From: Escherichia coli O127:H6 str. E2348/69 | GTDB taxonomy: Bacteria; Pseudomonadota; Gammaproteobacteria; Enterobacterales; Enterobacteriaceae | Assembly (NCBI RefSeq): GCF_000026545.1 | Contig: NC_011601.1 | Strand: one strand, 5' to 3' | Length of the DNA: 64,000 nt | In this document: positions 14,745-18,052 of the stretch, in pieces | How the letters are laid out: every line of letters starts with the position of its first letter | How positions within the stretch are numbered: position 1 is the first letter of the stretch | Made by a program: the position numbers and the translations under genes | Notes under the pieces: model-generated | What the model saw: the letters and a program-made list of their open reading frames with translations, nothing else | The model's database searches: none | What the model was told of the DNA's origin: nothing

Positions 14745-15398
14745 TTATTCCGAGTCTGGATATTTAAATTCTGAAAGAATCAGTTCTAGTTCTTCATAAT
14801 CTTTTTCCCACCATTTCATTTTTTCCAACTTATTTCTTGTATCATCATTAAAACGATAATAAAGTACTTTACAAGGAACCCCTGCAGCAACAGCATAAGG
14901 AGGTATATTCTTAGTAACAACTGAGCCAGCCCCAATAATAGCGCCATTACCTACAGTTACTCCATCCAATATAACCGTATTCGCACCCAAACATACATCA
15001 TGACCAATCATAATTCTTTTGGTTTCTTCAAATGTATGCGAATCCGGAGGTGGACAGCTTTTAGAAAGCCAATGTATTGAATTTTTCCCATAACAGAATG
15101 GATGCGTCGATATATATTCCGACACAGGATGTTTACCTAATCCCATTTTCACACTTTCTGCAATAGAACAATACCGACCGATTGACGTGTTCAATATTGT
15201 ACAATTCCTCTGAATATAAGTATGACGTCCAATATTTGAATTATAAAGCAATGTATTGTTATACACTTTTATATTCTCCTCAAATGTTACATGCCTTATT
15301 CTCGCTCCGGGATAAACACTAACGCCTTGAAAACATAGAATAATGTTTTTAATTAAATAGCATATAGGTAACAGTATATATTCTTTTATTATATTCAT
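14745..15398 (-). CDS. Hexapeptide-repeat O-acetyltransferase
   Basis: Left-handed beta-helix repeats (IGHDVCLGANTVILDGVTVGNGAIIGAGSVV); ATG at 15398 overlaps wzx stop as ATGA; ORF track extends to a GTG at 15461. Confidence 0.7.
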   Translation of the reverse strand: MNIIKEYILLPICYLIKNIILCFQGVSVYPGARIRHVTFEENIKVYNNTLLYNSNIGRHTYIQRNCTILNTSIGRYCSIAESVKMGLGKHPVSEYISTHPFCYGKNSIHWLSKSCPPPDSHTFEETKRIMIGHDVCLGANTVILDGVTVGNGAIIGAGSVVTKNIPPYAVAAGVPCKVLYYRFNDDTRNKLEKMKWWEKDYEELELILSEFKYPDSE

Positions 15399-16666
15399 CT
15401 TGCTCTCATTAATAAAAATATTCCGCCAATTGAAAAAGATATACTTGCATATGCTATCCACATCATGCCGCCAATTGAAATAGAGTTATTTCCTTTCATG
15501 AAATGGAATAAAATAAACATGCTTAATGCAGAAATAATATTACTGAACAGTATAATTCCCCCTGCGTTTAATCGAACAAGGTTTGTATAGATAAATGTAT
15601 ATGGTATATTTATTAAAACTGAGAGGCAAATAAGAGCTAAAGCCCCCCCTCCATGATTAGCTATATAATGATTTCTTGTCCATAAATATAAAATATCAGA
15701 TGAAAATATTATTGTCAGACCAATAGGGAAAGCTAATACCAATAGCATAATTATCATTTTTTTTAACGATAGAACATTAAATATACTCTTTTCCCCTTGT
15801 GATGATAAAGCTGGTAACAATGACTTCATCAAAGGATATTGTAGCTGTAAAAAAGATAATCCCAGTTGTGCAACAATAACATATACTCCATATAACTGTG
15901 TTTCCACGTAGTGTGATAATAATATTTTATCTAACTGTGAAACAAACACACCAACAATCACACCAAATGAAAATATATAGTTCTCTTTAACCAAATCAAT
16001 TAATTGAATCAATATATTATTATCTATTAAGCCTTTAAGATCTATATTATTGCGAGTAATCCATAAAAAATTAAAAATAAATTCTATACAGGTAACCACT
16101 GCGAAGGAAACTATATATACTATAGGTTCTGGATTTACCATCAATGAAATCAGCGCGACACAATGTTTACATGAAAAAAAACACACTTGGCTTAAATTAG
16201 TATTAAATTGCTTTTGAGTACCATTCCAAAAACCTATATTGAGATTATTTGCAAATTGAAATAGGAATTGAATTGCAAGCAATCTTATACAAAACTCTAA
16301 CTCCCTACTGCTATGCCCTGCATTAAACCATCTAAATGCCAACCAACCAGCCGAACTGGTTAGAAAAACCGCCCCAACAAAAGCAACAGCAATATATATC
16401 CAAAAATATGCAAAAAATATGTTTTCTGGCGTATTCGTTTTAGCAATATCGCGAGGCATAATCTGCGAACACCCAGCATCCAGAATAAGTAACATAGCCT
16501 GGATACTTAAACAAGCAGAGACGATACCCCATCCATGGGGACCTAGTAGCTTGATATAAAAGGGTATAAGGACTATTATCCCCCCCCCCATCCAAATCAT
16601 ACCAATGTAATTAAACATTGTGTTTCGTAAGAATATATTATTTTTAAAAGAGGATATTATTGACAT
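15395..16666 (-). CDS. wzx: O-antigen flippase
   Basis: 423 aa polytopic membrane protein, position and hydrophobicity typical of Wzx; contains a G9 tract (plus-strand C9 at 16579-16587). Confidence 0.7.
   Translation of the reverse strand: MSIISSFKNNIFLRNTMFNYIGMIWMGGGIIVLIPFYIKLLGPHGWGIVSACLSIQAMLLILDAGCSQIMPRDIAKTNTPENIFFAYFWIYIAVAFVGAVFLTSSAGWLAFRWFNAGHSSRELEFCIRLLAIQFLFQFANNLNIGFWNGTQKQFNTNLSQVCFFSCKHCVALISLMVNPEPIVYIVSFAVVTCIEFIFNFLWITRNNIDLKGLIDNNILIQLIDLVKENYIFSFGVIVGVFVSQLDKILLSHYVETQLYGVYVIVAQLGLSFLQLQYPLMKSLLPALSSQGEKSIFNVLSLKKMIIMLLVLAFPIGLTIIFSSDILYLWTRNHYIANHGGGALALICLSVLINIPYTFIYTNLVRLNAGGIILFSNIISALSMFILFHFMKGNNSISIGGMMWIAYASISFSIGGIFLLMRAR
16579..16587. repeat. Homopolymeric C9/G9 tract inside wzx coding sequence
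   Basis: CCCCCCCCC on plus strand, encoding GGG (MIWMGGGIIVL) near the Wzx N-terminus. Confidence 0.9.
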
Positions 16667-16678
16667 ATAGATGTTTTT

Positions 16679-18052
16679 TTATTTTTCTTTTAATAAATTA
16701 ATAATAATTGCCGTATTATTTTCCATCACGAGCTGATCACCTCTTGATTCAACGTTCAAACGCACAACAGGTTCGGTGTTGGAGGAGCGCAGGTTAAAGC
16801 GCCAGTTGGCAAAGGCCATACTGATGCCATCGGTGCGATCCACCGCCAGCGCCTCACGGCTAAAATGCTGTTCCACGCGGTTAATCGCCTCAACGGGGTG
16901 CGTGAGTTTGCTGTTGATCTCACCACTTGCCGGAAAAGCCGCCATCCGGTCGCGCACCAGTTCGCCCAGCGTTTTCCCTTTCAGGCACACCAGTTCGGCG
17001 ACCAGCAGCCACGGGATCATGCCGCTGTCGCAGTAAGCGAAATCACGGAAGTAATGGTGGGCGCTCATTTCGCCACCGTAGATAGCGTCTTCCTTACGCA
17101 TACGTTCTTTAATAAAGGCGTGTCCGGTTTTCGACATTATTGGCGTACCGCCTGCGGCAGTCACCACATCAACGGTGTTCCAGGAGAGACGTGGATCGTG
17201 GATGATCTTCGCGCCGGGATTTTTTTCGAGGAACGCCTCTGCCAGCAAACCGACAATGTAGTAACCCTCAATAAACTGCCCTTTTTCGTCAAACAGGAAA
17301 CAGCGGTCAAAATCGCCATCAAAAGCAATGCCCATATCCGCGCCGTGTTTAATGACCGCATTGCGGGTGTCGTCGCGACATTCCGGCAGTAGCGGGTTAG
17401 GAATACCGTTGGGGAAATTGCCGTCCGGCGTGTTATGCACTTTGATTAACTCCACCGGTGCGCCGAGGGCTTTAAAGCGGGCTTCAATGGCGTCCACCAC
17501 CGGACCCGCCGCGCCGTTCCCGGAGTTAATCACCAGCTTGAGCGGCGTGAGGTTTTTGACGTTGATATAACCGAACAGGTGATCAACGTAAGCTTCACGC
17601 AGATTGATTTGCTGATAGCGACCGCGTTTGGTTTCATCGACGGGAGGGAAGTCGTTGGCTTCTGCCAGACGCTGGACATCGCGCAGTCCGGTATCACCGC
17701 TGATCGGGCGAGCCCCCTCGCGCACCAGCTTCATGCCGTTGTAATCCATCGGGTTATGGCTGGCAGTAACTTCGATGCCGCCATCCACGCCGAGATGGAA
17801 CGTAGCGAAATAGATCTCTTCGGTGCCGGACATGCCGATATCCAGCACATCGACGCCCGCATCCTGTAAACCTTTCGCCAGCGCCAGTTTTAAGGTTTCG
17901 CTGGTGAGGCGGACATCACCACCTAAAACAATAGTTTTCGGTTTGAGAAATTCGCCATAGGCACGCCCAATACGCCAGGCAATATCTTCATTCAGTTCTT
18001 CGCCTAATTTTCCGCGAATATCGTAGGCTTTAAAGCAGGTTAATTTTTTCAT
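16679..18052 (-). CDS. manB: Phosphomannomutase, O-antigen copy
   Basis: 457 aa [16 protein letters not shown]..., TASHNP active-site motif; near-identical to the colanic copy cpsG except for the last ~20 residues. Confidence 0.93.
16750..18052. repeat. manB direct repeat, copy A (O-antigen locus)
   Basis: Aligns with 33740-35042 at offset 16990, roughly 96 percent identity by eye; homology ends exactly at the ATG. Confidence 0.8.

Follow-up and report, generated by a model that had tools for sequence, protein, structure and literature searches.

Our analysis has shown that wzx, the O-antigen flippase gene of Escherichia coli O127:H6 strain E2348/69, carries a run of ten guanines (G10) close to its 5′ end, and that public sequences vary in length specifically at this tract. 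The gene lies within a 64,000-nucleotide stretch of contig NC_011601.1 (RefSeq assembly GCF_000026545.1), referred to here as the window; coordinates are positions in it. What is shown comprises the tract, its position, the consequences of a length change for the reading frame, length polymorphism on several haplotypes and the lack of conservation of the tract in orthologues. The mechanics resemble those of phase variation, yet the best explanation is that the tract is a mutational hot spot and not an evolved contingency switch. We consider it probable (roughly 0.6) that G10 came about by accident as a hypermutable homopolymer over a conserved Gly3 and is a frameshift hot spot of mostly deleterious effect, held by purifying selection.

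The tract was located by direct reading and counting. On the plus strand it appears as ten C's at 16580-16589, in the context TATTAT-CCCCCCCCCC-ATCCAAATC, and on the minus strand, which is the coding strand of wzx, as TGG ATG GGG GGG GGG ATA ATA (W25 M26 G27 G28 G29 I30 I31). Codons 27-29, all GGG, make up positions 16580-16588, and the tenth G (16589) closes the ATG of M26. A previous sequence-only reading of this DNA had placed a long G run inside the 5′ end of wzx, and it does lie there, at codons 26-29 of 423; the length given then (G9) and the coordinates (16579-16587) were each off and are corrected here. The run thus falls in the 5′ coding region of a gene for a surface structure, where a change of ±1 alters the frame. 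No other homopolymer in the window is as long. Apart from it, the window has a single G or C run of at least 8, a G9 at 57649-57657, which had also been pointed out earlier beside an insertion sequence (IS) in dgcE and does adjoin the end of ISEc13; the next longest is a C7. When the window was shuffled 100 times with dinucleotides preserved, G10 runs occurred at a mean of 0.02 per window, and at least one was found in 2 of the 100 shuffles. Among the other glycine codons of wzx, 7 of 27 are GGG, and a second G run in the gene, the G7 of the HGGGA motif (15643-15649, minus strand), was used as an internal control.

The identity of the gene is supported by its open reading frame (ORF), its RefSeq name, its homologues and its context. 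The sole long ORF over the tract is that on the minus strand at 15395-16666, which encodes 423 amino acids and has a G+C content of 31.8%. RefSeq names the product "O90/O127 family O-antigen flippase" (WP_001403120.1, in 9 complete genomes), and a megablast search against 5,426 complete E. coli genomes detected the gene in 10, among them E2348/69 and two O127:H6 genomes. It sits between manB (phosphomannomutase) and the genes for a CatB-related O-acetyltransferase and Wzy, in a cluster of the Wzx/Wzy type with manC and manB upstream and with acetyltransferase, wzy, GT2 and GT11 fucosyltransferase genes downstream, followed by gnd, ugd and wzz. Hydropathy analysis indicates a polytopic membrane protein with about 10-12 hydrophobic segments; the first transmembrane segment (TM1) spans approximately residues 16-42, and the glycine triplet lies inside it. 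No Pfam or NCBIfam model matched Wzx itself at E ≤ 0.001, and its profile matched no PDB chain. Since these direct searches were empty, the family was assigned through homologues and RefSeq naming: Wzx aligns over its full length with 19 homologues (31-67% identity), 13 of which match MatE and six Polysacc_synt. Across this alignment N15, N19, Y20 and W25, all of which precede the tract, and G27 are almost invariant. The tract is therefore truly within the coding region and not 5′ of the real start.

To define the effects of a length change, alleles from G7 to G13 were built in silico and the products of gene callers were predicted. In the G9 allele the reading ATG GGG GGG GGA TAA brings a TAA at 16576-16578 (minus strand) into frame directly past the tract and closes a peptide of 29 amino acids, while the G11 and G8 alleles give 75 and 74 amino acids, respectively. 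These alleles bear out the earlier suggestion that slippage by ±1 would frameshift wzx. The G9 allele also contains a TTG (16593-16595, minus strand) that opens an ORF of 399 amino acids (MDGGGIIVL...) and is used by gene callers in public G9 contigs; it lies 16 nt upstream of the new stop and has no convincing Shine-Dalgarno sequence. In alleles of altered length the next in-frame ATG would give a product of 366 amino acids. Rescue of G9 by the TTG-initiated ORF was considered and is unlikely to be functional, as the product would lack N15, N19, Y20, W25 and half of TM1, and the start lacks a Shine-Dalgarno sequence. A role of the G run as an internal Shine-Dalgarno sequence for a downstream start was ruled out, as there is no start codon in range.

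Length variation was surveyed by matching the predicted products of the G7-G13 alleles by exact sequence in a collection of 15 billion proteins, after which the DNA of the contigs was fetched. Contig counts include similar places grouped with the displayed loci, and one strain may recur across sources, so that the counts are not independent. Intact Wzx (P0056) was found on 488 contigs and a version that starts at M17 (P0070) on 39. The 399-amino-acid product (P0072) was found on 6 contigs, all of them G9, and the 366-amino-acid product (P0071) on 11. Altogether, about 12 contigs carry a tract of altered length (nine G9, two G11 and one G8) as against approximately 534 with G10, or about 2% of these consensus assemblies. 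Among the contigs for which DNA was fetched, L005, L006, L007, L008, L010, L011 and L015 have G9, L012 has G11 and L013 has G8; L009 has G10 and was merely called short. The tract could not be read in L014 and L016, which end at or beyond it, L014 in adapter sequence. In the complete genomes, nine of the ten wzx carriers have G10. The tenth, CM2010-0578/1, shows 12 differences over wzx (seven deleted bases and one inserted) and several frameshifted neighbor genes; it is an error-ridden assembly and uninformative on tract length. The comparison of tract length across isolates that the sequence-only reading had proposed has therefore returned G8, G9 and G11 beside G10, and not an invariant tract.

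Comparison with the window showed that the contigs of altered length are spread over at least five O-cluster haplotypes and that the tract is their sole length change, apart from an A7 to A8 change in the manB-wzx spacer of L007. One of them, L010, an NCBI isolate assembly (GCA_052416775.1) with G9, equals the window over 7.1 kb save for the tract. Over 15.6 kb the same assembly differs by the tract, by one single-nucleotide polymorphism (SNP) in gmm and by SNPs that are also present in a G10 strain; no suppressor of G9 was visible in these 15.6 kb of the cluster. The G7 run of wzx served as a control: its predicted -1 and +1 products, looked up exactly in the same collection, were found on 0 contigs. 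The N-terminal peptides of G8 and G11, the G12 products and the in-frame G7 and G13 products had no exact match either; short peptides are probably not called, and little weight is attached to this. Because the contigs are clean and a consensus requires a majority of reads, we argue that most of the altered lengths are real, while some of the variants may have a technical origin. The G9 contig L015 (ENA ERZ761557, 3.9 kb) matches the window only at 17740-15244, a span that runs from manB as far as the acetyltransferase gene. The flanking DNA is unrelated and contains a gene for a lambda-N-like peptide, so that the contig may be rearranged, prophage-adjacent or chimeric.

A W-M-G-G-G motif is common to the closest relatives of Wzx, but the codons differ. 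G27-G29 are GGG GGG GGG in the E. coli O90/O127 alleles and in an Escherichia fergusonii-type allele of 97% identity. The main Citrobacter allele (P0073; 67% identity, 9 loci and a metagenome contig, on at least 71 contigs) has GGT GGA GGG, a second Citrobacter allele (P0074, 6 loci) has GGG GGA GGA, and the Salmonella bongori orthologue has GGA GGC GGG. Within the alleles compared, G10 is confined to the O90/O127 alleles of E. coli and E. fergusonii and to one rare Citrobacter-type allele (L017, P0002), which also has GGG GGG GGG and G10 and has no match in complete E. coli genomes. A degenerate pattern of the flanks gave 0 matches in contigs of GTDB representatives and 3 loci in metagenomes, two of the E. 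coli type with G10 and one of the Citrobacter type with an interrupted tract. Judging from these sequences, the tract is not a conserved feature of the locus; what is conserved is Gly-Gly-Gly. The constraint lies on the protein motif, and the run results from codon choice. In mutation accumulation experiments with E. coli, transient misalignment preferentially converts bases beside mononucleotide runs into the base of the run (PMC13250602), and this offers a neutral route from GGN GGN GGG to G10.

The G9 run at 57649-57657 provides a useful comparison. It is native dgcE sequence and was not made by the insertion of ISEc13: the intact dgcE of strain AR437 reads CTG TTG GGG GGG GGT CTG (LLGGGL), while K-12, O157 and most E. 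coli strains have the interrupted form GGGGGGTGTT. The extended allele was counted in complete genomes with identical 35-nt flanks, which gave 30 records with exactly G9, 5 with G8 and at least 40 with G10, although lengths obtained from BLAST identity bands are approximate and partial matches also land in the ≥99% band. The G10 set includes strain 042, with two independent records. Of the records with altered length, one G8 (2013C-3513) and one G10 (042) were examined, and both are annotated as pseudogenes with a frameshift. The tract can differ between near-identical genomes (G8 in N73, G9 in N137). No description of this tract was found in the literature searched, and a search for dgcE frameshifts gave only an unrelated 1456delC. 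Like the wzx tract, the dgcE run encodes Gly-Gly-Gly in a membrane segment, was formed by substitutions that extended a shorter G run and is polymorphic in length. Unlike wzx, with about 2% of altered lengths, alleles of altered length are common in dgcE, and loss of the gene is evidently tolerated. The dgcE tract looks truly hypermutable, inactivating a core diguanylate cyclase. Long G runs in E. coli thus change length over short evolutionary times when the gene is dispensable, and the contrast between the drift in dgcE and the approximately 2% in wzx points to purifying selection on wzx.

Based on these observations, we propose the following account of the wzx tract. G10 would have arisen by synonymous change at the conserved Met-Gly-Gly-Gly of TM1 in the O127/O90 Wzx. 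Replication slippage, as the probable cause, would recurrently yield -1, +1 and -2 alleles, in which Wzx is predicted to be truncated after 29 (G9) or 74-75 (G8, G11) amino acids. Truncation should abolish or strongly cut the export of O units, and a second slip could restore G10. Loss of the flippase while O units are being synthesized would probably be costly, so that frameshifted alleles stay rare; because OFF alleles are costly, purifying selection would hold the population at G10. In E. coli K-12 with a restored O16 antigen, deletion of wzxB during O-unit synthesis traps undecaprenyl phosphate, and growth is inhibited or the effect is lethal (PMC11813082). Taken together with the approximately 98% of tracts that are in frame, this toxicity leads us to argue that alleles of altered length are mostly deleterious. 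A precedent for the mutability of such runs is also available: the longest G·C runs of K-12, of 8 bp in leu tRNA genes, are outliers and dominant indel hot spots in lines defective in mismatch repair (PMC8510543). The possibility raised by the sequence-only reading that the tract is simply tolerated comes near to this account, but mere tolerance is incomplete as a description, as the tract is a real mutational hot spot.

Several points weigh against the hot-spot account. The tract is garbled in one complete genome of nanopore type (L004), and one contig (L014) ends in adapter sequence at the tract; the sequences compared are consensus assemblies, and some of the altered lengths could be sequencing, PCR or assembly errors at poly-G. 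A frequency of about 2% exceeds a simple mutation-selection balance if loss of wzx is strongly deleterious, which implies that OFF alleles may be leaky or tolerated in O127, that they may at times be selected, or that part of them may be artefacts. Evidence that wzx loss is toxic comes from the O16 system of K-12 and not from O127 (PMC11813082), and the rare Citrobacter-type allele that independently has G10 could hint at a pressure favoring the run.

The first of these doubts, taken to its limit, would make the tract inert: cells would in reality keep G10, with mutation there at the ordinary frequency, and the contigs with G8, G9 or G11 would be artefacts of sequencing, PCR or assembly. The only complete genome of altered length is plainly error-ridden (the 12 differences over wzx noted above), one contig ends in Nextera adapter at the tract, -1 undercalls predominate as homopolymer errors would give, and most of the variant contigs come from automated assemblies (Logan, ENA) that carry no quality information. 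However, over stretches of 4-15 kb that include A8, T8 and G7 runs, the variant contigs are clean apart from the tract, the G7 control within wzx gave zero variants, a G9 consensus needs most reads to be G9, and dgcE is found with G8, G9 and G10 in different complete genomes, that of the Sanger-era strain 042 among them. We regard a purely technical origin as unlikely but by no means negligible. The opposite view, which had been raised by the sequence-only reading as a possible slipped-strand switch for O-antigen export, is that the tract is a true contingency locus that is maintained for its function, in which reversible ±1 slippage switches the export of the O127/O90 antigen, for example to escape phage or antibody, and a leaky OFF state avoids the toxicity of trapped undecaprenyl phosphate. 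The position is typical, at the 5′ end of a surface-polysaccharide gene with a stop directly after a -1 slip. Length polymorphism occurs on at least five haplotypes at about 2%, similar to the manA frameshift in 2 of 37 Vibrio cholerae genomes, and the partial function of the frameshifted wbeL of that species is a precedent for a leaky OFF (both PMC3441752). The tract is also kept in the O90 and O127 reference alleles and in the 97%-identical E. fergusonii-type allele, and G10 arose independently in a Citrobacter-type allele. Against this, about 98% of assemblies are ON and the length distribution is not balanced, the main Citrobacter alleles and S. bongori interrupt the tract yet keep Gly-Gly-Gly, and wzx is the worst step of the pathway to block (PMC11813082). 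Furthermore, no phase variation of O127 wzx has been described in the literature searched. With most tracts in frame, no conservation in orthologues and toxicity of wzx loss in K-12, a dedicated switch is disfavored and appears rather unlikely.

A bolder form of the same idea would make the tract a working contingency locus of enteropathogenic E. coli (EPEC) O127/O90; no slipped-strand ON/OFF switch of O-antigen export would have been described in E. coli before it. Here the G9 sequences would represent viable, leaky OFF cells that are partly rescued when polymerase or ribosome slips or when WzxE cross-flips, are enriched under O-antigen-specific phage or antibody and revert in the gut, and the G9 of dgcE would be a second E. 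coli contingency locus, for cyclic di-GMP and curli. We hold this to be more doubtful still. Finally, slippage of polymerase or ribosome on the G run could be programmed and needed for Wzx or an alternative product. Long homopolymers can support such slippage, as the non-standard decoding of V. cholerae wbeL illustrates (PMC3441752). Nevertheless, the common G10 allele is a single open frame of 423 codons collinear with all homologues, orthologues that lack the run make the same protein, and no ORF in an alternative frame is conserved; that in the +1 frame has 51 amino acids, and its product has no exact match in the protein collection. With the majority allele in frame and orthologues that do without the tract, recoding can be regarded as effectively refuted.

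The poly-G and poly-C contingency loci of Neisseria, Haemophilus, Campylobacter and Helicobacter (for example siaD, fucosyltransferase and lipooligosaccharide genes) have tracts of about 8-14 bp in the 5′ coding region, where ±1 changes turn expression ON or OFF. In these organisms, tract lengths are widely spread among isolates, the tracts are conserved, there are many per genome, and OFF cells are viable. The wzx tract resembles them in being a G run in the 5′ coding region of a surface-glycan gene whose frame is set by ±1 changes. It differs in that 98% of assemblies are ON, in being interrupted in orthologues and in the near absence of such runs from E. coli genomes.

Homopolymers near the 5′ end of O-antigen genes are also known from V. 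cholerae O1, where an A8 run in wbeL (nt 108) and A9 runs in manA allow the cells to escape phage ICP1 (Seed et al. 2012, PMC3441752). A -1 slip yields a very short peptide in both systems (42 amino acids in V. cholerae wbeL, 29 in O127 wzx), and the frameshifted allele occurs in a few percent of isolates or assemblies both in manA (2 of 37) and in wzx. Frameshifted wbeL keeps some function through non-standard decoding (PMC3441752). In contrast to the G10 of the flippase gene, which is absent from orthologues, the tracts of V. cholerae consist of A's, lie in sugar-synthesis genes and show 100% conservation in O1 (37 of 37 genomes; PMC3441752). Phage selection, the lipopolysaccharide (LPS) phenotype and the reversion of manA were shown experimentally for V. 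cholerae, whereas the wzx tract is known here from sequence alone. A block at wzx would be expected to be toxic. Another parallel exists in E. coli K96, in which an A7 to A6 frameshift of kpsC causes reversible capsule loss and recurs in natural genomes; its authors attribute it to rare slipped-strand mispairing (mSphere 2026, PMC13410964). Species and type of target (surface polysaccharide) are the same as for wzx, and in both cases a homopolymer frameshift is present in natural genome sequences. The kpsC frameshift was also seen in laboratory mutants, and its authors do not call it a dedicated switch (PMC13410964). The kpsC tract is, however, shorter and A-rich, its reversion was demonstrated by experiment, and it serves an ABC-transporter-dependent capsule and not the Wzx/Wzy pathway. 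No description of a frameshift or phase variation of O127 wzx, or of this tract, was found in the literature searched.

The wzx tract joins a known class, that of homopolymer frameshift hot spots in surface-polysaccharide genes, and by itself the finding establishes no new regulatory mechanism. If the tract slips appreciably, flippase-frameshift variants would arise in stocks and isolates of E2348/69, the prototype EPEC strain, and of other O127/O90 strains, and such variants could confound serotyping, LPS-dependent phenotypes, phage susceptibility, in-silico O-typing and pseudogene calls. More generally, the case suggests that drift at a conserved Gly-Gly-Gly motif can produce a dangerous homopolymer, which is then kept in check by selection. 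Exact look-up of the predicted ±1 products proved to be a cheap survey of tract-length polymorphism over public assemblies.

Some further features of the window were recorded. ISEc13, an IS4-like element at 56096-57645 with a transposase ORF at 56261-57634, was inserted into the G run of dgcE with an 8-bp target duplication, GTTGGGGG; besides 57649-57657, the dgcE sequence concerned includes 56088-56095. The ends of the element resemble the outside and inside ends of IS50 (CTGTCTCTTATACACAA ... AGATCTGATCAAGAGACAG). In complete E. coli genomes this insertion is present only in E2348/69 and the two O127:H6 genomes, each of which carries 27-30 copies of the element.

Just upstream of wzx, an A7 run (16674-16680, minus strand) overlaps both the stop codon of manB and the spacer of 12 nt between manB and wzx. 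It occurs as A5, A7 or A8, with no consequence for the frame: A8 occurs in EcPF16, KFu022 and L007, and A5 in E. fergusonii-type alleles. The extra A of L007 was considered as the mark of a noisy platform, and this was dropped because the same A7/A8 polymorphism is present in two complete genomes; it is thus genuine. The change shifts the spacing just before the wzx start and could affect translational coupling. Downstream of wzx, the gene for the CatB-related O-acetyltransferase (14745-15461) is annotated with 217 amino acids in some genomes and 133 in others (L004, L009, L020). According to a review, WbiO of O127 corresponds to the 3′ part of its O90 homologue WerU, and this may be why fucose is acetylated differently in O90 and O127 (PMC7685785). 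Lastly, in the related O-antigen cluster of a Citrobacter genome (L034, GCA_903684405.1), the wzy-like gene downstream of wzx is cut to 164 amino acids by the insertion of an IS with a DDE transposase, a further way in which the O antigen can be inactivated in clusters of this family.

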